IMG/VR virus record: IMGVR_UViG_3300025009_000068
Coordinates: 25,433 to 89,432 of that record
Reading direction: 5' to 3' (one strand)
DNA: 64,000 bases
Source of the DNA: a virus
Part shown: positions 3,594 to 64,000 of the stretch, in pieces
Layout of the letters: each line of letters opens with the position of its first letter
Position numbering within the stretch: position 1 is the first letter of the stretch
Notes under the pieces: model-generated
What the model was told of the DNA's origin: nothing
The model's database searches: none
The model's input: the letters and a program-made list of their open reading frames with translations, nothing else
Position numbers and translations under genes: made by a program

Positions 3594-6032
3594 CTACCCT
3601 CCAACCTGCACAAGCTCCTCGATGCTGGTAGCAAGACGAACTTCATCGACGTCGATATCGCTCACAATACTGATCTTCCCTTTCCTCCCCCGATACTTTC
3701 CGGGAAGGCGGAAGGGCGTGTTCGCTGAAACCATCTTCTGATACTTGAGCTTGAGCACGCTCCCGCCACGATCTGCCACAAACAGCCTGAAAAGCAACGT
3801 CGGGTCATCGGCCATCTCGACCGGAACATCTTTCAGCTTATCATCATTCACGGCCACGTCATTCATATCAAAAGCGTCTATGGACCCGCCCACCCCCTCA
3901 TCACTATCCATGAGCGCCTCATTCGCGGCAATGACGGCATCCCGGTACGCATCATAAGCGGCCCGCTTCGCCGCCGGCACCGGATCTCCATAGTCTGCAA
4001 CCACCTTCGCGGCCCCGAAGTTTACGAGCCCAGGAAACTCATGAACCTTACTTGTCCAAGTGCAGAGCATGTTTTGCGTCTCGTGGCCGTCGAGCTTCCG
4101 GATCACATAATTCCCCGAGATCTTCTGAACCACGTAAAGGAGACCTTCTTCATGGCTCAAGTATCCTGCAAGGGAATGATCAAGACGAATGAGCGTTCCC
4201 TCAGAGATTCCACCTCCAATAAGGAAACCTTCCCCGCTGTCTCCGCTGTCTCCGCTGCCAAGCCCGCCGGTCCCGCTCTGTATCATGTCAATATACACGG
4301 ATTTTATCAGGCTCGACCCGATGGCACGCATCCCTATCCCGTGGCTTCCAATCGATCCGGAGATCTCTCCTTCACCGAAATAGACCTCAATATTATCCGC
4401 TCTCCTGGCTTCCTGGTCGGCCATGAAATTCAGATCGAAATCATAATCATGGTATGCCACATAGTTCTGATTCAAAAAGAACGAAAGCATGGTCTCTGGC
4501 TGCATCATGCGCCACTCGCGCTCCCTGAAAATATCATTCGTTGCAACCCTTGCTCCCCCGGGCCCCACTACCAGAACCCCGTCAACCGTAGGGAAGAACA
4601 CCCCGCTTTCCGTTGTCACCATCCCGCGCTTCGAAAGGCACGGCTTCTGAATGGAGTTGTCGTCAAAGGCCATGGATGCCGGATCGAGACCGGTGTAGAG
4701 CAGGGTCTCCTTGTCGGTTCCGATCACGATGGTGTTTCCCGATGACCCGATTGCAACAATGGATGAATTGACCGTCTCCCGGTATCCGGACGGCCAAGCG
4801 TAGCACTTGTACGGCACGCACAGGCACAGCTCGTTCGAGTTTTCTCCCTGCCTGAATCCGGCCATGCCTCCTCCTGGAAGGGGGATGATGCCTATCAAGT
4901 CTTCGGGCGGAGGAAGGTAAGTGGACGTGGCAAGGACCTCCCCGAGGTCGGCCGACAAGATCACGTCCCTGTATGTGGTGTCAGCGACGTCGATTTCATC
5001 AACAAACTGATAGACCGCTGCCGACGACCCCGTGTTTACCCGATAGATCCTTCGCTTCGTTATGTGATGCTCTGCGCTCAGCGCAACGGATTCCTCGGCG
5101 TCGTTCTCGTAGGTGTCAACGAACCCCGAAACATCAACATACCGCTGCCATCCAGCTTCGATATCGTCGTCTTCCAGGTTGTTGGGATCCGGGTCGGACT
5201 CAGCCAGGCGGATAATGATGGAAGTCCCGGTCCATGCCCACTCGCCAACACGAAGCTCGCCGGCGACTCCATTCCGAAGATAAGCCGCCCCCTTCACGGA
5301 AACAGATGACGGAATGAGGTCGAGGGACCCGACAAACCGCCACTCATCAGTCCCGCTGGCAGTGGCCGCCCATAGCCCCGTTGTGGCATTCAGGCTTTCT
5401 TTTCTGTCTGTACCGGCCCAATGATCGATTATCCTCGAAGGAGGGGATTCCGCCCCTTCCTCGCCCCAACTGTTGACGTTGGTATAGACGTAGGCGATGG
5501 ATTGTTGCTCATCGGTAACGCGCTCTATTTTCTCGGGCTCTCCTCCAAGGCATATGGCGTGATATCCGACAGCCGACATGCCGATCCCGCCCTTAACGGA
5601 ATTCTTGTCTATCTTGTAGAGCATTTCCCGCTCGACGATGGGGGCCTTGTCCGGGCGCGGGACTCCAAGCCGGTAGGATGTGAGGCTTGTTGATGCCGCG
5701 GTGTGCCCCGTGATCATGGTGGAATCGAAAATGCGGGGAACGTCCATCCCGGTGACGTAGGTTCTATCGTCCACGTCGGCTAACGGGCTCTTCACCACGT
5801 TCACATCGGAAGTCCAATAGAGCCAGTACGGAGCGGAGCCGAATTTGTAAATGGAGAGCGGTGGAGAAGCAAGGGTGCCAAGGTTCAGGATATCGACATA
5901 GTTCCGGAGCGGCATGATCTTCCCGGAGTAAAGCTTGCAGTTCTTCGCATAGGTCGCCTGATTGTTGGCAAGGTCTTTCGGGGAGAGGCGCGGGACCTCG
6001 CCCGAGAATCCCTTGAACACGAGAGTTGCCAT
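3594..6032 (-). CDS. Tail tubular/nozzle (stabilization) protein
   Basis: Probable start MATLVFKGFSGEVPRL with AAGGAG RBS; YVYTNVNSWGEEGAESPPS and RRIYRVNTG motifs typical of podovirus tail nozzle proteins; about 812 aa. Confidence 0.7.
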   Translation of the reverse strand: MATLVFKGFSGEVPRLSPKDLANNQATYAKNCKLYSGKIMPLRNYVDILNLGTLASPPLSIYKFGSAPYWLYWTSDVNVVKSPLADVDDRTYVTGMDVPRIFDSTMITGHTAASTSLTSYRLGVPRPDKAPIVEREMLYKIDKNSVKGGIGMSAVGYHAICLGGEPEKIERVTDEQQSIAYVYTNVNSWGEEGAESPPSRIIDHWAGTDRKESLNATTGLWAATASGTDEWRFVGSLDLIPSSVSVKGAAYLRNGVAGELRVGEWAWTGTSIIIRLAESDPDPNNLEDDDIEAGWQRYVDVSGFVDTYENDAEESVALSAEHHITKRRIYRVNTGSSAAVYQFVDEIDVADTTYRDVILSADLGEVLATSTYLPPPEDLIGIIPLPGGGMAGFRQGENSNELCLCVPYKCYAWPSGYRETVNSSIVAIGSSGNTIVIGTDKETLLYTGLDPASMAFDDNSIQKPCLSKRGMVTTESGVFFPTVDGVLVVGPGGARVATNDIFREREWRMMQPETMLSFFLNQNYVAYHDYDFDLNFMADQEARRADNIEVYFGEGEISGSIGSHGIGMRAIGSSLIKSVYIDMIQSGTGGLGSGDSGDSGEGFLIGGGISEGTLIRLDHSLAGYLSHEEGLLYVVQKISGNYVIRKLDGHETQNMLCTWTSKVHEFPGLVNFGAAKVVADYGDPVPAAKRAAYDAYRDAVIAANEALMDSDEGVGGSIDAFDMNDVAVNDDKLKDVPVEMADDPTLLFRLFVADRGGSVLKLKYQKMVSANTPFRLPGKYRGRKGKISIVSDIDVDEVRLATSIEELVQVGG

Positions 6033-53424: not shown

Positions 53425-55701
53425 ATGTCTAAGCTGGCCAGGAAGACGCCATCACCTTGCAACGCATCTCAATCTTCCGCTCCCACCACCATCAACGCCG
53501 TAGAAACCATATCCGGGACCATAAAGGACATGAGCCGCCCCTTCACGGGAGGTTGGAGAATTATCCGGATCAGTGGCATTCCAGAAAAGGCTACCGGTGT
53601 TCTTCCGCTGGACTTCGAGGTCGGGGATTGCGTAACCCTGGAAGGGAAGTACGAAGAGACGGGGTACGGCCGGCAATTCAAATTCTCCAACGCCACCCGC
53701 GAGCTTCCCAGGGATACCATGGGAATCATCCACTACCTCGACCGCCTGCGCTGGGTCGGACCTACTCTTGCGCGTCGTCTCGTGGAGGCCTTCGGCCCAG
53801 CCCTCTTCGAAGTGATTGAGCACTCTCCCGGGAAGCTCTCCGAGGTCAATGGCATCACCCCGGCCCGAGCCCAGGAGATCCACGAGAAATACATCTCCAT
53901 CATGTCGGATCGCACGATTGACGTGTACTTCAGCACCCACGGGATAACGCCCTCCCTTCTGAACCGCCTCATGGACACTTACGGCACCAAGGAGAAAGCC
54001 AAGAAGCAGATCGAGGCCAACGTGTACCTTCTGGCCGACGATGTGTGGGGGATAGGCTTCAAGAAAGCCGACGCCATTGCCGTGTCCACCGGGATAAAAA
54101 AGGAAAGCAGGCGTCGTCTGACGGCCGGAATCAGGTATGTTCTGCAGGAAGCATCCGGTAGAGAAGGGCACACCTGTCTCCCCTTCGAGGAACTGGTCAA
54201 GCGCGCCGTGGAGATCCTCGAGGCCGGGAAGGAGAAGGTTGTTGAGGTGCTAAGCGAGATGATCGCCGCGGGGAAGCTGGTGGATTTTACGCCGGGGAGG
54301 GAAATGATGGGAATGGAGGCGCAGAAAAAGAGCGATGCCTTGAAGGAAGAAGCCCTTCCCTTCGAGGGTGATGCAGGCAAAGTCGATGCAACCACTCCCG
54401 CCCCCGTCACCTACATCTACACGGCAGAAATGTGGACCGCTGAAATCGACGTGGCACAGTCCCTCCTAAAGTTCGTCTCAACCCCCCATGCAGCCATGAT
54501 AAGCGAGCTCTCCTCGGATGAAATCAACTCCCTCGACCAAGACCAGCTTCGAGGCCTGGACCTCGCCATGACGTCAAAAATCATGGTTCTAGCGGGTGGG
54601 CCCGGAGTTGGCAAAACCCACTTGATCAACTTCATCATCCGAGCCATGGGTCGAGATTTGAATATTGCCCTGGCCGCCCCCACGGGAAAGGCGGCCAAAC
54701 GCATGTCCGAGGCAACCGGCGGTCGTGCGGCCATGACCATTCACCGCCTGCTCGCCTTTCATCCCGAGGTGGGATTCCGCCACAACCAGGACAACCCCCT
54801 CGACGTGGACGTGCTCGTGATCGATGAGACCTCCATGGTGGATGTGCAACTCATGGCGAGCCTGTTATCCGCGGTCAACCCGGAGAAGACGCAGCTTATC
54901 CTCGTTGGGGACCCGGCCCAGTTGCCGTCGGTGAGTGCCGGGAGGGTGTTGGGAGACATCATCGAATCGTGGATAATCCCCACAGTGCATCTCACCACCC
55001 TTCATCGCCAGGCCGCGAAGAGTTACATCAACCGGAACGCTCAGCGAATCAATCGCGGCGAGAAGGTTGAGCTCAAAAATGATGGCGACTCGGATTTCTT
55101 CTTTGTGACCGAGGAGGACAAGCACGGCATCGCCCCCATGATAGAGAAGGTGTGCGTGAAATTCTCCGCGCACTATGGGTTTGACCTGAAGGATATCCAG
55201 GTGTTGTGTCCCATGAAGAAGGGGCCGGCCGGGACGATAGAACTGAATAGGCGATTGAGGCCCGTGATCAACGTCGAAGGGGTGGCTATAGGCGGGACGC
55301 CTTTTTTGACAGGGGATAGGGTCATCCAGACGAGGAACGATTACAAGAAGATGGTGTTCAACGGGGACATGGGGATTGTGCTTGGAGGGGATGCGAGTGC
55401 CGTTGTGGTCATGATCGATGATCGGGAAGTCGAGTATGCTTCCAAGGATTTTGAGCAACTACAGATGGCTTATGCGCTTACTGTTCACCGATCACAAGGG
55501 AGTGAATTTCCCGTTGTTGTGATCCCGGTACACACCACAAATTATATTCAACTCCGGAGAAATCTCTTGTATACTGCCATCACTCGTGCTAAAAGGTATG
55601 TTGTCTTGGTAGGCCAACAAAAGGCAATAAACCTTTGCATAAGGACGACAGATGCAAGCAATAGATTTACAAATCTTGCAAGAAGGCTCAGAGGTCAATA
55701 A
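53425..55701 (+). CDS. recD2: RecD2-like SF1B helicase
   Basis: HhH repeats; GGPGVGKT; APTGKAAKR; IDETSMVD; VGDPAQLPSV; AYALTVHRSQGSEF; LYTAITRAK. Confidence 0.92.
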   Translation: MSKLARKTPSPCNASQSSAPTTINAVETISGTIKDMSRPFTGGWRIIRISGIPEKATGVLPLDFEVGDCVTLEGKYEETGYGRQFKFSNATRELPRDTMGIIHYLDRLRWVGPTLARRLVEAFGPALFEVIEHSPGKLSEVNGITPARAQEIHEKYISIMSDRTIDVYFSTHGITPSLLNRLMDTYGTKEKAKKQIEANVYLLADDVWGIGFKKADAIAVSTGIKKESRRRLTAGIRYVLQEASGREGHTCLPFEELVKRAVEILEAGKEKVVEVLSEMIAAGKLVDFTPGREMMGMEAQKKSDALKEEALPFEGDAGKVDATTPAPVTYIYTAEMWTAEIDVAQSLLKFVSTPHAAMISELSSDEINSLDQDQLRGLDLAMTSKIMVLAGGPGVGKTHLINFIIRAMGRDLNIALAAPTGKAAKRMSEATGGRAAMTIHRLLAFHPEVGFRHNQDNPLDVDVLVIDETSMVDVQLMASLLSAVNPEKTQLILVGDPAQLPSVSAGRVLGDIIESWIIPTVHLTTLHRQAAKSYINRNAQRINRGEKVELKNDGDSDFFFVTEEDKHGIAPMIEKVCVKFSAHYGFDLKDIQVLCPMKKGPAGTIELNRRLRPVINVEGVAIGGTPFLTGDRVIQTRNDYKKMVFNGDMGIVLGGDASAVVVMIDDREVEYASKDFEQLQMAYALTVHRSQGSEFPVVVIPVHTTNYIQLRRNLLYTAITRAKRYVVLVGQQKAINLCIRTTDASNRFTNLARRLRGQ

Positions 55702-56413
55702 AGAGACCTGGATTCCAGTGTGGTGGTGCCAGGATTATGATGTATCGAATTTTGGAAGGGTGAGATCGAGAAAAAGGAAATTACCAATAATACTTTCTGC
55801 ATGTCCAAACCAGTGGGGCTATTTGCAAGTTGCCCTGTGTCAGAATGGCAAGGTAAAATGTTGCAGAATTCATGTTTTGGTTTTGGAAGCATTTGTATGC
55901 AAGCGACCCAGTGGCAAAAATGCTAATCATAAAGATGGAAATAAGAATAACAATTTTGATTTTAATCTTGAATGGGTAACTCATCAAGAAAATGTAATCC
56001 ATTCATATAAAACTGAGTTAAAGCATGGTCTGCGTGGAGAGAAAAGCGGAAGGAGTAAACTAAAAGATGGTGAAGTGTGGCTTATTAAGAAGCTATGGCT
56101 TTCTGGAATACCGTCAATACTAATAGGCAAGATGTTCAAAGTAACTCCTCATCATACGGCTAGAATAGGAAGAGATGAGTTGTGGGGAGACATTGACATA
56201 TCTTATGATGAAGTTTCGCCAGTTAAATACAAAACAGATGATTATGGAGAGCGTCACTTCAAGTCCAAATGGAAAGATGGTGAAGTTTGGCTCATAAAGA
56301 AACTGCTTAACGCCAATATTGATAGAAAGATTATACAAAAGATGTTTAATATGAAAAAATCCAATCTTTCTCACATAGCTGTTGGTATGACGTGGCGTCA
56401 TATTGAAGTGTGA
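55652..56413 (+). CDS. NUMOD4-HNH homing endonuclease
   Basis: YDVSNFGRVRS (NUMOD4); ANHKDGNKNNN..NLEWVTHQENVIH; two repeated C-terminal DNA-binding units; AT-rich; start uncertain. Confidence 0.85.
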   Translation: MQAIDLQILQEGSEVNKETWIPVWWCQDYDVSNFGRVRSRKRKLPIILSACPNQWGYLQVALCQNGKVKCCRIHVLVLEAFVCKRPSGKNANHKDGNKNNNFDFNLEWVTHQENVIHSYKTELKHGLRGEKSGRSKLKDGEVWLIKKLWLSGIPSILIGKMFKVTPHHTARIGRDELWGDIDISYDEVSPVKYKTDDYGERHFKSKWKDGEVWLIKKLLNANIDRKIIQKMFNMKKSNLSHIAVGMTWRHIEV

Positions 56414-56459
56414 TGTTGGGCTCGGTGAGTAGACAACCCAGCGATTCGGGAAAGATCCA

Positions 56460-56708
56460 ATGGGCTGGAAGTTTGTGTGCCCCTCCTGTGGCTACGTTGC
56501 CAGCGTTAAGGATTGGAAGGATGCCGGGGCATCAGACCGGGAAGCGGCTTTCTCCTGTGTGGGACGAGCGATGAATTCTGATAAGCAGATTTTCGATAAA
56601 ACGGGCGGGCCATGCAATTACGCCGGCGGGGGGCTCTTTGGGCTCAACCCGGTCACGGTTGATTTTGACGGAAAGGCCATTAAGGTTTTCGCGTTTGCGG
56701 AAGCCTAA
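56460..56708 (+). CDS. Cassette 1 gene: VVA0879-like Zn-binding protein (possibly 5'-truncated)
   Basis: WKFVCPSCG..FSCVGR..CNYAGGGLF; its stop TAA lies inside the R'' box of attC1. Confidence 0.6.
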   Translation: MGWKFVCPSCGYVASVKDWKDAGASDREAAFSCVGRAMNSDKQIFDKTGGPCNYAGGGLFGLNPVTVDFDGKAIKVFAFAEA

Positions 56709-56795
56709 CCCAGTAATGAACCAGACGGGTACCACGCCTTGGTTTTATGCAGTCGGCGGTGCTAGGGTGCCCGCTGGTTATCGCCAAAGTTAGGC
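56703..56795 (+). mobile_element. attC site 1
   Basis: R'' GCCTAAC ... R' GTTAGGC; inner arms ATGAACCAG-A-CGGGTACC / GGTGCCCG-CTGGTT-AT with extrahelical bases. Confidence 0.88.
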
Positions 56796-56813
56796 CGCGC
56801 GAGAGTAAAGTCA

Positions 56814-57665
56814 ATGCCAAGAGCACAGCAAATGTCGGTAGTACCATTGCAAAACGTGGTCGCTGAGTCCGTGGGTTTTATGCAGGCTCATGAACCATCT
56901 GAGGGGTATATGGTTTGCAATAGTTTCGGCAAAGACTCAGTTGTGCTCATGGAGTTGGTGAAAATGGCTGGAGTTAAATGCTTTCCGGTCCACAGCTTCA
57001 CCGGCATTGATCCACCTGAGGCGATCAAGTTCGGGCTCAAGACATACCCTGATACTCGTATTTACCGTCCCGTCATGTCTATGTGGGAAGGCATCAGAGC
57101 TAAGTTTCCTCCCGTTTTTAATAAGCGCTGGTGTTGCGACGTACTAAAGAAAGACCCAACGAAAGCTATCCCCTTGAAACACAAACTGGTTGGCATACGG
57201 GCCGAAGAGTCTCCAGGGAGGAAAGAGCGTGGGAGGATTTCAAGGTTTCGCGGCAAATGGCAGTATTCTCCCATTTTCGAGTGGCACGAATGGCACGTCT
57301 GGGAGTTCATCGAAGGTCTTGGCCTGCCATTTTGCGAACTGTATGACCAGGGCTTTGACCGGATCGGCTGAATGGTGTGCCCTTTAATCGTCTCGGTCGG
57401 GATGGGTAAGGTGAAGCAGCACAGGCAAAGGTGGCCCGGATGTTATCGGGTTTTTGAGCATGCGGTCACATGGTGGTTCTGGAACAAGGCTGGCGAAGAC
57501 AAGACTCGCTGGCCCACACCCAAAGCATACCTGGACGCATGGTACCGTGGATTCAAATCATCTAACAAGCGCATGCAGCCGGACACCGACCACGCGGGGG
57601 CAATTCAGTTGCGTCTCTTCGAGTCCTCGGCCCGCGTGATCGGTGCCGCTGATGCGCAGCGTTAG
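56814..57665 (+). CDS. Cassette 2 gene: PAPS/APS-reductase-family protein, probable selenoprotein (Sec at UGA 57369-57371), 283 aa
   Basis: SFGKDS PP-loop, RWCC..LKK, GIRAEES..R, PIFEW..VW and GFDRIG-[TGA]-MVCP; the next ORF continues in frame; SECIS-like hairpin follows. Confidence 0.8.
57382..57411 (+). promoter_or_regulatory. Bacterial SECIS-like hairpin
   Basis: CUUUAAUCGUCUC-[GGUC]-GGGAUGGGUAAGG; about a 13-bp stem with G-U pairs and one mismatch; loop begins 23 nt after the UGA. Confidence 0.7.
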
Positions 57666-57667
57666 AC
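57560..57667 (+). mobile_element. attC site 2
   Basis: ATCTAAC AAGCGCATGCAGC..CACCGA.CACGCGGG / CCCGCGTG.TCGGTG..GCTGATGCGC..GTTAGAC. Confidence 0.88.
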
Positions 57668-57682
57668 GGCGAGGAGGTGGTG

Positions 57683-57883
57683 ATGGTAACAGTGAGTTTC
57701 CCGGCGGGCGACAGAGGTATCTCGTGCTGCGCCTGCGGCGGAAAGGTTATCGTGACGCGCACCACATTGAGGTGCCGCAAGTGCGGAACAACCGCACCCA
57801 ACGCTTGGGTGCCAAAGGGGTCTAACCCAGCAATGAACCCGACGCCGGCCACGCGCGTGAGTCGTGCTACGGAAACCCGTTAA
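57683..57883 (+). CDS. Cassette 3 gene: small Zn-ribbon protein
   Basis: GGAGGT RBS; CCACGG...CRKCG; reads into attC3. Confidence 0.6.
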   Translation: MVTVSFPAGDRGISCCACGGKVIVTRTTLRCRKCGTTAPNAWVPKGSNPAMNPTPATRVSRATETR

Positions 57884-57912
57884 GGCCGGCGCGGGTTATC
57901 GCCACGTTAGGC
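57820..57912 (+). mobile_element. attC site 3
   Basis: GTCTAAC..ATGAACCCG-A-CGCCGGCC / GGCCGGCG-CGGGTT-AT..GTTAGGC. Confidence 0.9.
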
Positions 57913-57933
57913 CGCGAGGCCCGAGGAGACGGA

Positions 57934-58110
57934 ATGAAAATGAAAGCGTGGGGCTATGCCCATCTCTTGGTCGAGGCGGAATTCGAAGTAGATGAGACTG
58001 GATGCGAGCATACGGAGGCAATGAAAGCTTTGAACGAGGCGGCCAGGAAAGAATACGGCATATATCCGTCGCAATTCGAGTTTTCGGATGGGATTAATAT
58101 CACGGAGTAA
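57934..58110 (+). CDS. Cassette 4 gene: 58-aa acidic hypothetical protein (not in the ORF track)
   Basis: GAGGAG RBS; MKMKAWGYAHLLVEAEFEVDE...DGINITE*; stop is 3 nt before attC4. Confidence 0.65.
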   Translation: MKMKAWGYAHLLVEAEFEVDETGCEHTEAMKALNEAARKEYGIYPSQFEFSDGINITE

Positions 58111-58113
58111 ATG

Positions 58114-58206
58114 GCCTAACCCAGGGCTGGAGCCGAAGCGGGCCACGCGTGGTGCTACGGAAGTCCGTGGTACTACGGCCCGCTCGGCTCAGCCCCAATG
58201 TTATGC
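58114..58206 (+). mobile_element. attC site 4
   Basis: GCCTAAC..GGGCTGGAGCCGA-A-GCGGGCC / GGCCCGC-TCGGCTC-AGCCC..GTTATGC. Confidence 0.9.
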
Positions 58207-58223
58207 GGCGAAAGGGGGAGGTG

Positions 58224-58433
58224 ATGAAGTGTGGAGCTGTCAACGAGACGTTCCCGCACGTGGCCTGTGAGTTGGAGCCAGGGCACTCGGGGAGACACGG
58301 GGCTATTAGGCCCATGCGTGGCGGTGGTGAGGGGGTGTATTTATGGCATAACCCAGGGCTGCAGGCGACGGCGGAGGAAGCCCGAGACGTTGGTTCAGAG
58401 TCCTTGGCCGCCGCGCCTGAGCCCCAATGTTAG
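58224..58433 (+). CDS. Cassette 5 gene: small Cys/His metal-binding protein
   Basis: GGAGGT RBS; C..C.L..GH.G.H motif; reads through attC5 to the TAG in GTTAG. Confidence 0.6.
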   Translation: MKCGAVNETFPHVACELEPGHSGRHGAIRPMRGGGEGVYLWHNPGLQATAEEARDVGSESLAAAPEPQC

Positions 58434-58435
58434 GC
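58346..58435 (+). mobile_element. attC site 5
   Basis: GCATAAC..GGGCTGCAGGCG-A-CGGCGG / CCGCCG-CGCCTG-AGCCC..GTTAGGC. Confidence 0.9.
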
Positions 58436-58458
58436 CACTTGGGACAGGAGCTGGAAGA

Positions 58459-58842
58459 ATGACGAAAAATGAACGGGTGGATATGGTCAATCAGGCATTG
58501 GAGGCAATCGCTTCCAACGGCAGGCGGTTTTTTTATCATGAAAACCGAGTGTCCAAGATGGAGGTGGACGCTAGAGGGCGAGTCTGGTTTGTGGATTCGT
58601 ACTCACAACGGCGCATTTTCACGCATTGCCCATTCAGCCGATGGAGAGGATTCACAAATGGCGGCACACTCAAGGCTCTTGTTTGTCATTTTAGGGACTT
58701 CATCACAAAAGCAAAGCCGGTACCGGCCCATTGCTTTGGACCGTGGCCGGAATGGTATTGCGATGGGGATCTGTGGGGTTATGGTGAAGATATGGCGTTG
58801 GTTCGGAGTGCAGCCGTGAAGATTGGTATTGTGGCGTCGTGA
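58459..58842 (+). CDS. Hypothetical phage protein after the last attC
   Basis: AGGAG RBS; GRRFFY..GRVWFVD..WRGFTNGGTL..DLWGYG; no attC follows. Confidence 0.65.
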   Translation: MTKNERVDMVNQALEAIASNGRRFFYHENRVSKMEVDARGRVWFVDSYSQRRIFTHCPFSRWRGFTNGGTLKALVCHFRDFITKAKPVPAHCFGPWPEWYCDGDLWGYGEDMALVRSAAVKIGIVAS

Positions 58843-58899
58843 CCCTGTGTGGTGGAGCCGAAGCTGGCAACTTGAGAGTGCTACAATGATCCGTGGAAT

Positions 58900-58962
58900 G
58901 CCTTGAAGGGAAGGGCTTGCTTTTTTACGCCACCAACGCAAGCCCTCCCATCCCTTCAAGGC
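58900..58962. terminator. Long hairpin between convergent operons
   Basis: GCCTTGAAGGGA..AGGGCTTGC / GCAAGCCCT..TCCCTTCAAGGC. Confidence 0.6.
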
Positions 58963-58988: not shown

Positions 58989-59417
58989 TCAAACCACTCC
59001 CCACTCCACCAACTCTCTCTTGTACTTCTCCCCCTCGGCATGGATCAGCGCATGCATCCTGATCGCCCCGTCATTTCCTTCACCGAGCACACCCCGGTCG
59101 ATAACGAACTCATCGCCCTCATCGAGAATGCACACACTCCCCGTTCCACTGCTGTTCCTTTTCCGCCTATCCACAAATCTCCAGTCCTTCAAGCGAAGCC
59201 GGCAGCGCGCCCGAGCTGGAGCGATGAGTGTGCCGTCCGGATTCTTTTCCTCTTCGAAGTCGAGGTAGAGGTCTACGTGGCGTGGGAGGGGGTTGGAGTA
59301 GAGATTGAGGGGAGGGTTTGAGTTGGGGAGAGGGTTGGAGTTGGAATGTGAGGCAAGAGATGACGTGGATTGCCTTGAAGGGGAAGGGCTGTCTTTGGTG
59401 TTGCCGTAATCAGTCAT
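58989..59417 (-). CDS. Hypothetical protein
   Basis: AAGGAG RBS; 142 aa. Confidence 0.5.
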   Translation of the reverse strand: MTDYGNTKDSPSPSRQSTSSLASHSNSNPLPNSNPPLNLYSNPLPRHVDLYLDFEEEKNPDGTLIAPARARCRLRLKDWRFVDRRKRNSSGTGSVCILDEGDEFVIDRGVLGEGNDGAIRMHALIHAEGEKYKRELVEWGVV

Positions 59418-62475: not shown

Positions 62476-63407
62476 GGTATCCCCCAATAAAAAAGCGCCA
62501 GGGGGTACCGGACCAACAACGGCCCCCGCATACCTTACGATATGCGGTTCCCTGACGCTAACTGAATGTCTTGAAACAAAAATAGCCATTACGGAGGCTC
62601 CCGGTTGTTGTTTGGTTTGGAGAGTATGCCTCAAATCAAGTATGAATGCAAGAAAAACACTTCGGTGGTTGACCTGTCATCGGCTACCTTGGTTTCGTCA
62701 ACAACATCCTTGGACGTCCTCATCCTCGTTCCCTCCGCCATTCCCCATTTATCCACGTCCCTCCTCTCCACCCAAAGCCTCCCATCCCCAATTCACAAGA
62801 GCCATAAGCCCCGCCATTGCCCCGCCGCAGATTATGCCGACCGCCGCACAGGTCCAAAAGAGTTGCCATCCTTGAAGATCGAGAAGTGATTGCATGGTTT
62901 GTATCCCTTCCTACTAGATATCCATCTCTACTAGACATCCCTCCCTGCCGGATAAAGAGAAAGAAGAGAAATGATTAAAGCGGCTCCAGCATTCGGCGCG
63001 GTACACGACACCCTTCAGACCTATGCGCCGGTCGCTCTTGCGGAGTGGTGCTCTCGGAGCCGCTGATTGGATTGCTGCGTCATGCCGATCGGTTCCGCCG
63101 CCGGGACTCACGACCGATGTCTCGAAGGCGACGGCGCTTCGTGATGGCGTTGGCTTGTCTGCCACGGTTGGCGTCGGCGCGGGATACTCCCCGATTACTA
63201 AACCAACTCCGCTGCTCGGGGCGCACCGACCCATGAAACATATTGAATATGCTCATAACGGAGCTACGCAACAATGATCCATGTTCTCTTCTAACCAAGG
63301 TTGGCGAGTCATAGAATATCTTTTCTTTGGTATCAAGTGCTGCTTGGTGAGTCGGTCGATTCACGATTCTACCCCTTCCTTGTTCTTCTCGTTACTTGCT
63401 CTTCTCG

Positions 63408-63986
63408 TTACTTGCCATCATCGCCGCCCATCGCCTCCCCATCCATCGGCACCTTCCCACCCTCCACCACCTTCTTCCGTCTTCTCTCCTCCTGAAACGC
63501 CTTCAGATTCTCAGGCACACCCCTCGCTTTCGCAGCCTCGGACCTCGCCGCGGACAACGACTTGGCCATGAGGGAAGTTTTCAGCCTCATCCCGTGCTTC
63601 TGCTTGTACTCTTTGGGAGAGAGGCCGTGAAGAAAGAGGTGCTTCTGCGTGAGCTGCTTGAACTCTTTCCCGCATTCCAGGCAGATTACCTTGTCTTCCT
63701 GGATGGAGTCGGCAGGGGAGATAGTTGGGGAGATGGCGGGGAAAGCAGAGTTGGGAGTGGAGAGAGAGGCGTCAAAATCTTCCCCTTCAAGGCCTTCTTT
63801 TCCGAGCTTGTCCTTGAAGGATGGATGGAAGCCGGGAAAGAAAAGAGAGATCCCGCCACCATCTCTTCTGCTCACGGAAAGTTCTTCCATCTCCCTCTTC
63901 CTCATTCCGAGAAGGGTGGAGAACGCCCCTTCGAGATAGCCCTGGATCTCCTCGACCGTCATCCCGCGCTGCACCGCCTGGCTCAT
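63408..63986 (-). CDS. Ros/MucR-family transcriptional regulator (N-terminus may extend past the window)
   Basis: SIQEDKVICLECGKEFKQLTQKHL..HGLSPKEYKQKHG. Confidence 0.8.
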   Translation of the reverse strand: MSQAVQRGMTVEEIQGYLEGAFSTLLGMRKREMEELSVSRRDGGGISLFFPGFHPSFKDKLGKEGLEGEDFDASLSTPNSAFPAISPTISPADSIQEDKVICLECGKEFKQLTQKHLFLHGLSPKEYKQKHGMRLKTSLMAKSLSAARSEAAKARGVPENLKAFQEERRRKKVVEGGKVPMDGEAMGGDDGK

Positions 63987-64000
63987 GGTGAGTTGTGCCA

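Follow-up and report, generated by a model that had tools for sequence, protein, structure and literature searches.

Integrons are known chiefly as bacterial spreaders of resistance genes, and their cassettes form an enormous reservoir of genes, most of them unknown. The replication operon of a short-tailed groundwater phage ends in a run of short open reading frames (ORFs), most of them followed by an imperfect palindrome that resembles an integron attC site, which raises the question of whether a phage can carry integron cassettes and, if so, how these are exchanged. We addressed this question in a 64-kb stretch of the phage genome (here called the window) and in the complete genome from which it comes.

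The whole array spans positions 56416-58899, occupies the 3' end of the replication operon, and contains six cassettes (Table 1). As the initial annotation had proposed, it extends the helicase operon, with which it shares a strand. That annotation counted five cassettes; five attC sites are indeed intact, and they lie within 1.75 kb, but the array holds a sixth cassette, whose attC is decayed. Nor are the cassettes confined to this array, since a lone seventh cassette with its own (sixth) attC occupies genome positions 4650-5121, ~9.6 kb away and outside the window. The layout of each cassette is canonical: TTRRRY, a short leader bearing a ribosome-binding site, one ORF, an attC, and then G. 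All six array ORFs are on the + strand with the site 3' of each. The ORF listing agreed with the earlier observation that the stop codons lie at or inside the sites for C1 to C5: the C1 TAA is in R'' (56706-56708), the C2 and C5 TAG codons are in R' (57663-57665 and 58431-58433, respectively), the C3 stop is in the attC3 loop (57881-57883), and the C4 stop is 3 nt 5' of attC4 (58108-58110). Ribosome-binding sites, which had been reported before each ORF, are clear and of the GGAG type for C3 to C6 and weaker for C1 and C2.

Table 1. Features of the cassette array and its borders (window coordinates)
Feature	Position	Strand	Remarks
RecD-like helicase gene, last conserved replication gene 5' of array	53425-55701	+	Product 83% identical (amino acids) to G001 helicase
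HNH/NUMOD4 homing-endonuclease gene, between helicase and array	55652-56413	+	Pfam HNH_3, NUMOD4
GTTGGGC, R'-like left array junction	56415-56421	+	1 nt past HNH stop codon; sequence reading; fits GTTRRRY
Cassette C1	56416-56789	+	ORF 56460-56708, 82 aa, VVA0879 family CxxC protein
attC1, 93 nt	56703-56795	+	R1, 90.3 bits; R2, 26.8 bits, E 6e-4
Cassette C2	56790-57661	+	ORF 56814-57665, PAPS-reductase family, in-frame TGA 57369-57371
attC2, 108 nt	57560-57667	+	R1, 79.5 bits; R2, 43.6 bits, E 5e-8; bottom-strand fold z = -7.0
Cassette C3	57662-57906	+	ORF 57683-57883, 66 aa, small four-Cys zinc-ribbon-like protein
attC3, 93 nt	57820-57912	+	R1, 96.5 bits; R2, 43.0 bits
Cassette C4	57907-58200	+	ORF 57934-58110, 58 aa
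attC4, 93 nt	58114-58206	+	R1, 101.9 bits; R2, 39.8 bits
Cassette C5	58201-58429	+	ORF 58224-58433, 69 aa, reads through attC5
attC5, 90 nt	58346-58435	+	R1, 87.4 bits; R2, 39.2 bits
Cassette C6	58430-58842	+	ORF 58459-58842, 127 aa
Decayed attC after C6	58843-58899	+	Resembles attC4 left arm and loop; lacks R'' box and whole right arm (alignment to attC4)
Inverted repeat, 23-nt arms, then T run	58900-58962		Likely two-way terminator

The borders of the array were examined as well. The HNH gene has a GC content of 37.5%, compared with 54.6% for the genome, and is missing in the closest relative, G001 (85 kb; IMGVR_UViG_3300002097_000027); it is an insertion that lies outside the cassette system. 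Upstream of the GTTGGGC junction, we detected no partner R'', no palindrome, and no attC model match. At the other end, the decayed attC matched neither of the covariance models described below, and the inverted repeat that follows it likely seals off the operon from the convergent gene at 58989-59417. A promoter scan revealed no sigma-70-like site on the + strand of the array, with counts that did not differ from those in shuffles.

All five palindromes reported by the initial annotation were in place, with attC boxes, a spacer, and an L stem with two bulges. The R'' boxes of attC1 to attC5 read GCCTAAC, ATCTAAC, GTCTAAC, GCCTAAC, and GCATAAC, and the R' boxes read GTTAGGC, GTTAGAC, GTTAGGC, GTTATGC, and GTTAGGC; both core boxes are also found on the sixth site (genome 5029-5121), and TAAC and GTTA are invariant across 25 sites of this phage attC type. 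Since RYYYAAC...GTTRRRY box pairs are no rarer genome-wide than expected by chance (20 versus 12 ± 5 in shuffles), the evidence lies in the whole structure rather than in the boxes. Bottom strands that failed to fold like attC sites had been named as an observation that would count against the cassette reading; instead, they folded in an attC-like manner, into an R stem and an L stem separated by an unpaired spacer, the L stem having two single-base bulges, 6 bp apart, on its 3' arm (z = -1.9 to -7.0 relative to shuffles). In alignment, the bulges fall at the same positions as in the canonical aadA1, dfrA, and estX sites. The first bulged base is a C on the bottom strand, compared with a G in attC-aadA, and the canonical dfrA and estX sites likewise have a C.

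These structures are also conserved through sequence change. For the five sites, RNAalifold returned 27 pairs, 16 of them compensatory. In an alignment of the 25 sites that was fitted to the model, 89% of the pairing cells were paired, compared with 68% in shuffles and 28 to 41% with slid partners; 119 cells had changed on both sides, compared with 46 in shuffles (0/500 shuffles reached 119), and covariation extended over 16/18 pairs of the L helix.

To compare the palindromes with canonical attC sites, we used two covariance models: R1, derived from the five phage sites only, and R2, derived only from seven canonical class 1 attC sites in phage P1 isolate MH445380. R2 served as a substitute for the IntegronFinder model, and its alignment was laid out with the architecture of R1; the R2 test is thus independent of R1 in sequence and not in column assignment. 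In place of the IntegronFinder check suggested by the initial annotation, R2 recovered exactly the five sites from the 64-kb window, on the coding strand, with scores of 26.8 to 43.6 bits (E, 5e-8 to 6e-4). The opposite strand of the same sites scored at most 16 bits, and unrelated spots in the window scored at most 13.1 bits; the detection criterion given by Qi et al. is 20 bits or more (PMC9892861). Conversely, R1 recovered 7/7 canonical sites from the 126-kb P1 phage record (16.9 to 35.7 bits), namely, the 3' ends of aadA1, dfrA, aadA2, qacH, estX, psp, and cmlA, and with default filters it found no further match in that record.

The palindromes could instead be a repeat peculiar to the phage (terminators, processing sites, or phage nuclease targets, for example) that came to resemble attC by convergence. 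They do form strong hairpins between short ORFs of one operon, an HNH endonuclease gene adjoins them, and their box pairs alone are unremarkable. However, a relative that lacks the HNH gene still has attCs, the same sites are found in cassette arrays that are not phage-like and carry toxin-antitoxin and GNAT-type ORFs, and Rfam gives no family match, its search returning only spurious miRNA-like matches on the terminator. The success of the reciprocal model tests, which includes the bulge positions, and the strand asymmetry (27 to 44 bits on the + strand versus 16 or fewer on the - strand) also argue against this explanation, which we regard as very improbable and which is already refuted as far as models can refute it. 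The reciprocal covariance-model test thus supports the identification of the palindromes as integron attC sites.

We then considered whether the array belongs to the phage at all. Nucleotides 1 to 126 of the record are identical to positions 89306-89431, so the genome is complete and closes at ~89.3 kb. A bacterial integron fragment mis-joined into a phage contig might explain the array, given that attC3 is a branch point in the short-read assembly graphs of the source runs, with a 37-nt unitig there at threefold depth. Nevertheless, the array lies between phage genes in a self-closing record, a 10,034-nt contig spans the region from the helicase gene through attC3, a 6,878-nt contig continues from attC3 onward, and a sibling phage has cassettes at the same two loci in independent contigs from other samples and studies. 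Such a chimera is therefore barely credible. A blastn search with the array as query found no match among 50,697 phage records.

With the palindromes read as attC sites of a phage genome, the source of a recombinase could be assessed. The closed genome has no match to TIGR02249, PF00589 (E ≤ 1), or PF00239 and encodes no tyrosine or serine recombinase, which extends the reported absence of an integrase from the window to the entire phage. Since an integrase elsewhere in the same phage, one of the sources that had been suggested, drops out, any integrase would have to be supplied in trans. The first of two attC-motif scans of 185,579 species genomes yielded nothing, and the second yielded one isolated site, in a cyanobacterial Phormidesmis metagenome-assembled genome without a full IntI. 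Separately, a protein-atlas terminase search gave a weak Verrucomicrobiota hint that we do not count as evidence. The intI, attI, and Pc of a complete integron are absent from the array, whose left end is a bare GTTGGGC after the HNH gene; five closely spaced attC sites in a closed genome without a tyrosine recombinase make it a CALIN (cluster of attC sites lacking an integron integrase).

Although the initial annotation considered phage CALINs rarely described, they have been published with experimental validation of their attCs: Qi et al. (2023; PMC9892861) describe CALINs in the virulent phages TJE1 (Tetrasphaera), PH101 (Pseudoalteromonas), and P12002L (Polaribacter) and report that IntI1 recombined 5/6 tested phage sites. 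Integrase-less cassette arrays in phages have thus been known since 2023, and the present array is a further example. It resembles those arrays in its co-oriented attCs with one short ORF each, in the lack of an integron integrase in the phage, and in its non-resistance cargo (PMC9892861). It differs from TJE1, which is described with three attCs, in having five intact attCs, a decayed one, and a second locus, and from the published CALINs in that the phage is uncultivated and its attCs are known from sequence alone, whereas theirs were validated by recombination (PMC9892861). Like sedentary chromosomal integrons (e.g., those of Vibrio), the array consists of small, co-oriented cassettes whose functions are unknown, the attCs of its different cassettes resemble each other (59 to 87% identity), and related metagenome arrays carry toxin-antitoxin and GNAT-type cargo. 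Unlike them, it is far shorter, lacks an adjacent intI, attI, and Pc, and resides in a lytic-type phage.

The comparison with related phages that had been proposed as a check on cassette gain and loss revealed differences by whole cassettes at two loci in G001. At the first locus, G001 carries one different cassette together with C6; at the second, it carries two different cassettes where the present phage has one. The flanks of both loci are 78 to 93% identical (nucleotides) between the two phages, and upstream of the array, nucleotide homology to G001 stops at 55561. C6, whose product is 96% identical (amino acids), is the only cassette in common, and the decayed attC that follows it is present in G001 as well. 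The two forms of the array coexist in one groundwater sample, since sequencing run X5 contains the G001-type junction (depth, 37) alongside exact pieces of the present array (depth, ~3). A joint of 57914 to 58115 in X5 was considered as a candidate excision and rejected, as it occurs in one contig with a side of 31 and the letters between are unread. In a contig from another run, the match is confined to 58346-58436 and has different DNA to either side, and the similarity of foreign contigs to the array ends at attC borders. Judged by these sequence comparisons, the cassettes act as mobile units, with turnover at two loci between sibling phages. The sections of Qi et al. (PMC9892861) consulted here contain no comparison of sibling phages.

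Given the absence of a recombinase from the phage and the turnover at two loci, we consider it likely, with a probability of roughly 0.8, that the array is a CALIN of six integron-type cassettes that are exchanged through an integron integrase acting in trans. The integrase of the infected cell, from a chromosomal or mobile integron, would target attC bottom strands that fold while the phage DNA is single stranded. Cassettes would be excised by attC x attC recombination, and cassettes from a community pool would be inserted at G|TT. The first cassette at each locus probably entered a non-att site of the attG kind just after a phage gene, with later cassettes then using the resident attC; the most distal cassette at each locus would have lost half of its attC and thereby become fixed. 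Read-through transcription from the phage operon upstream probably accounts for expression of the ORFs.

This proposed route of entry follows the finding that IntI can use GWT sites other than att sites for cassette insertion, for which an attG consensus of G|WT and domestication of cassettes by attC loss were put forward (Loot et al., preprint, 10.1101/2022.09.11.507474). Similarly, the lone cassettes and the array start directly after ordinary genes with no attI-like site, and the decayed distal attCs match domestication by attC loss (10.1101/2022.09.11.507474). In contrast, the target here is phage DNA rather than a bacterial chromosome, and the base before TT is A or T at 3/4 left junctions, where G|TT or G|WT would call for a G. 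Since neighboring attCs are similar, the exact crossover base cannot be fixed.

The junctions also bear on a second possibility, namely, that the cassettes are genuine but frozen, having entered long ago with no present IntI action, and that the sibling differences arose by homologous or illegitimate phage recombination through conserved flanks and similar attC repeats. In addition to the left junctions that are not clean G|TT, the identity between attCs of different cassettes would permit some homologous exchange, both phages have a decayed distal attC, and no IntI was found in the closed genome or through the attC-motif scans. The GC content of the cassettes (55.5%) equals that of the backbone (54.6%), and the cargo is phage-like, so the array may be old or exchanged mainly between phages. 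Nevertheless, the five attCs retain full structure, compensatory changes, and conserved boxes, which implies continuing selection on a recombination site. Turnover at two separate loci with conserved flanks, and similarity to other contigs that stops at attC borders, likewise weigh against a frozen array, which we judge unlikely.

The cassettes can also be compared with other phage accessory genes. Like morons and homing-endonuclease islands, they are small accessory genes between conserved phage genes that vary among close relatives, and an HNH gene adjoins the array, as in homing-endonuclease-associated islands. Morons, however, have their own promoter and terminator and no attC, whereas each unit here ends in a site that matches attC models. 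A closed, recombinase-free phage with intact attCs and two-locus turnover is field evidence for phages in cassette traffic, and the turnover between siblings goes beyond the 2023 catalogue of phage CALINs. The phage also provides a concrete system for asking whether attCs become exposed to host IntI during infection and whether phage accessory genes account for some of the cassettes whose function is unknown.

The same attC type was found in other elements. In an unrelated 39-kb temperate phage, at least four sites are supported by the models, and sequence reading reveals further attC-like sites; the integrase of that phage is not an IntI (49 bits versus a cutoff of 265). Eleven metagenome contigs also have this attC type, several of them pure cassette arrays, and related arrays carry toxin-antitoxin and GNAT-type ORFs. 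On contig L029, a homolog of the lone-cassette ORF lies beside an attC 84% identical to attC1. It is possible, though we put it forward only tentatively, that unrelated groundwater phages (the 89-kb lytic-type group and the 39-kb temperate phage) use host integron integrases for phage-to-phage exchange of accessory genes. If so, phages would be both the source and the users of part of the environmental cassette pool.

The cargo was described as phage-like rather than as resistance genes, and the PHROG matches of C1, C2, and C6 bear this out. The C1 product matches NF041591 (78 bits; cutoff, 37) and phrog_32023, and its homologs, on plasmids (Variovorax and Nostoc) and in phages, carry no annotation beyond VVA0879 family protein, hypothetical protein, or transcriptional regulator. 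C3 has no family match beyond a weak rubrerythrin-like domain match, C4 and C5 belong to no known family, and the C6 product matches phrog_23101 and phrog_14313; PADLOC, PDB, and Pfam gave no function for C3 to C6 or for the lone cassette.

C2 encodes a member of the PAPS-reductase family (PF01507, 87 bits; phrog_424) that matches the PAPS-reductase part of BrxP, and the last ~35 codons of its ORF are attC2 sequence. The PF01507 match spans the in-frame TGA, and a paralog has TGA at the same position; the codon is probably one for selenocysteine. In one sibling phage, the PAPS-reductase gene is fixed, and in the present phage it is a cassette; the resident PAPS-reductase gene of L036 has no attC remnant on its flanks. 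The PAPS-reductase gene with its probable selenocysteine codon is a candidate example of phage-derived cassette cargo.

The coordinates that the initial annotation had assigned to five imperfect palindromes matched exactly when the sequence was read. The R'' box that opens each site reads YCTAAC or CATAAC, and the closing R' box reads GTTAGRC or GTTATGC. Folded as single-stranded DNA, each bottom strand formed an R stem of 5 to 8 bp, then an unpaired spacer, then a long L stem from whose 3' arm two single bases bulge out. Relative to shuffled sequences, folding was far better for four sites (z = -3.2 to -7.0) and modestly better for attC1 (z = -1.9); the attC-like hairpins that had been claimed were present in all five sites, attC1 being the weakest. 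RNAalifold recovered 27 pairs from the five sites, 16 of them with compensatory changes. Since R''/R' box pairs alone were not rarer than chance genome-wide (20, versus 12 ± 5 in shuffles), the weight of the evidence lies on the whole structure. Among 25 sites of the same attC type from phages and metagenome contigs, 89% of pairing cells were paired, compared with 68% in shuffles and 28 to 41% when the partners were slid, and 119 cells had changed on both sides, compared with 46 in shuffles (reached by 0 of 500). The L helix covaried at 16 of 18 pairs, TAAC and GTTA were invariant, and an Rfam search of the array matched no family.

The identity of the sites was assessed with reciprocal covariance models. 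A model trained only on the five phage sites (R1) was run on a phage P1 isolate, MH445380, described as carrying two class 1 integrons (PMC9892861). With default filters, R1 gave four matches in its 126.5 kb, each at the 3' terminus of a resistance cassette within the class 1 integron region, which has intI1 genes. With filters off, R1 recovered all seven canonical sites (aadA1, dfrA, aadA2, qacH, estX, psp, and cmlA; 16.9 to 35.7 bits). The two unpaired R1 positions aligned with the known bulges of the canonical sites at an identical 6-bp spacing, the first bulge being a top-strand G in the phage sites, dfrA, and estX and a C in the aadA sites. A second model trained only on those seven sequences (R2) found exactly the five phage sites on the + strand of the 64-kb window (26.8 to 43.6 bits), although this reverse test is independent in sequence and not in layout, since R1 laid out the R2 alignment columns. 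The other R2 matches were weak ones to the complementary strand of these sites (≤16 bits) and to unrelated spots (≤13.1 bits).

When borders were drawn by the G↓TT rule, the array resolved into six cassettes, C1 to C6. Each carries one ORF with its stop in or beside the site, as the initial annotation had described for the first five, and all ORFs lie on the + strand.

Cassettes of the array (window positions) and the attC of the lone cassette at the second locus
Feature	Position	Strand	Basis
C1	56416-56789	+	G↓TT rule
C2	56790-57661	+	G↓TT rule
C3	57662-57906	+	G↓TT rule
C4	57907-58200	+	G↓TT rule
C5	58201-58429	+	G↓TT rule
C6	58430 to about 58899	+	G↓TT rule
Sixth attC	genome 5026-5124, outside window		R1 71.6 bits, R2 32.9 bits

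On its left, the array ends in a bare GTTGGGC, 1 nt past the stop codon of an HNH/NUMOD4 homing-endonuclease gene (55652-56413; 37.5% GC, versus 54.6% for the genome), which overlaps the helicase 3' end. The remnant 3' of C6 resembles the attC4 left arm and loop and has neither an R'' box nor a right arm. Next, at 58900-58962, come a strong inverted repeat and a T run, which face a convergent gene. CCTTSAAGG palindromes lie within this terminator-like hairpin and within a second one at 59372-59389, with none inside the array.

The window forms the final 64 kb of an 89,432-nt IMG/VR record, whose genes are those of a phage and encode an internal virion protein, an adaptor/portal protein, a large terminase, a primase, and a helicase. 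Genome positions 1-126 are identical to 89306-89431 (window 63874-63999), with one extra base beyond, and this exact overlap closes the record on itself, despite its linear class in IMG/VR. Searches of the whole genome with an integron-integrase model, a tyrosine-recombinase domain (E ≤ 1), and a serine-recombinase domain gave no matches, whereas all three gave matches in control genomes. The reported lack of an integrase in the window therefore extends to the entire closed genome, and the suggestion that the phage carries one outside the window is excluded. A lone cassette occupies a second locus about 9.6 kb from the array, measured across the record junction. It starts with TTAGGCCGCGAGG, and C4 begins with the same 13 letters; its 118-aa ORF precedes the sixth attC.

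The only close relative in IMG/VR, an 85-kb phage (G001) with an 83% aa-identical helicase, differs by cassettes at both loci, the gain and loss that the initial annotation had proposed looking for. At the first locus, the HNH gene is absent from G001, which carries one small attC-bearing cassette that differs from those of this phage and then the same C6 (96% aa identity), attC remnant, and terminator. At the second locus, whose flanks are 90 to 93% identical in nucleotides, G001 carries two cassettes, both different, in place of the single one of this phage; as at the first locus, a decayed left arm is what remains of the attC at the end of the distal cassette. The helicase C termini of the two phages diverge from 55561 onward. 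One groundwater run of another study contained the G001-type junction (depth 37) together with exact array pieces (depth about 3). The source-run assembly graph branches inside attC3, where a 37-nt unitig (57883-57919) was covered about three times as deeply as the phage contigs and also occurred in a 3,980-nt contig (depth 28), implying that a more abundant element of the same sample bears the same attC arm. Other public-run contigs matched attC-sized pieces only, one of them 58346-58436, flanked on either side by unrelated DNA.

IntI, the integron integrase, binds the folded attC bottom strand, with bulged bases setting polarity and cleavage at G↓TT; recombination between two attC sites (attC × attC) releases a cassette, and insertion takes place at attI or attC. 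Less specific insertion uses GWT genome sites (10.1101/2022.09.11.507474). The intact covarying sites and the turnover at two loci support a model in which the IntI of an infected cell would act in trans on cassettes in phage DNA; we infer the enzyme, its single-stranded substrate, and the entry route of the cassettes. Against a simple version of this model count an A or T before TT at three of four left junctions, backbone-like cassette GC, and phage-like cargo. The main rival, an array that is now static and was reshuffled by homologous exchange between phages, seems to us unlikely beside trans-acting IntI.

Qi et al. (2023) describe 17 CALINs (attC clusters without an integron integrase) from 10,705 phage genomes, some in virulent phages, and recombination by IntI1 of five of six phage attCs assayed (PMC9892861). 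Given that report, the present array is a further example rather than a new kind. Its size exceeds that of the virulent-phage CALINs described there, and the comparison of sibling phages supplies evidence from nature that cassettes turn over between them.

The same attC type was found by motif scans elsewhere. Among viral contigs, it occurred in two records of one unrelated 39-kb temperate phage, which has at least four model-supported attCs among tiny ORFs, with further attC-like sites on reading the sequence; its integrase is not integron-type (49 bits against a cutoff of 265). Two junctions in the cassette array of this temperate phage (L019, 8787-8800 and 9637-9650) are 14-nt mini-palindromes (TAACAACACTGTTA) that resemble R'' and R' boxes joined directly and are perhaps attCs whose stems were deleted. 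Scans of metagenome contigs yielded 11, some of them from phages more distantly related to this one, in which attCs occupy other positions, and others pure cassette arrays, such as L035 (6,126 nt, six co-oriented sites, 48% GC). Contigs L032 and L034 (37 and 42 kb) have same-family co-oriented sites of about 130 nt at the end where each contig starts; these three are probably chromosomal integron arrays that broke assemblies. In another contig, L029, translations revealed PIN-toxin-like and GNAT-like ORFs, and a homolog of the lone-cassette ORF adjoins an attC 84% identical to attC1. Scans of 185,579 species genomes found no bacterial genome with both this attC type and intI.

The cargo is phage accessory-like rather than resistance-like, as initially judged: C1, C2, and C6 matched PHROG families, and no resistance-like gene was found. 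No family was found for C3 to C5 in Pfam, PHROG, PADLOC, or PDB searches. The C1 product matched the VVA0879 family (78 bits). At 82 aa (ORF 56460-56708), it is shorter than its homologs (about 100 to 115 aa), its match to the family profile does not begin until position 19, and an in-frame stop lies 27 nt upstream; the gene may be truncated at the left junction of the array. C2 encodes a PAPS-reductase-family protein with an in-frame TGA (57369-57371) at the Cys of a GCxxCP-like motif (DRIG-TGA-MVCP). Since a 51%-identical paralog in a sibling-type contig (L036, 2160-2981, - strand) shares the position of this TGA and homology continues beyond it, selenocysteine or recoding is favored over a broken gene. 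The hairpin 3' of the TGA was only weakly better than shuffles (z = -1.8). In L036, the gene forms a fixed 870-bp insertion (2121-2990) that holds nothing else and shows no attC remnant; this phage has no such gene at the equivalent site (genome 88333-88396, window 62901-62964) and carries its paralog as C2, in which the natural protein end (...WYRGF) falls at the start of attC2.
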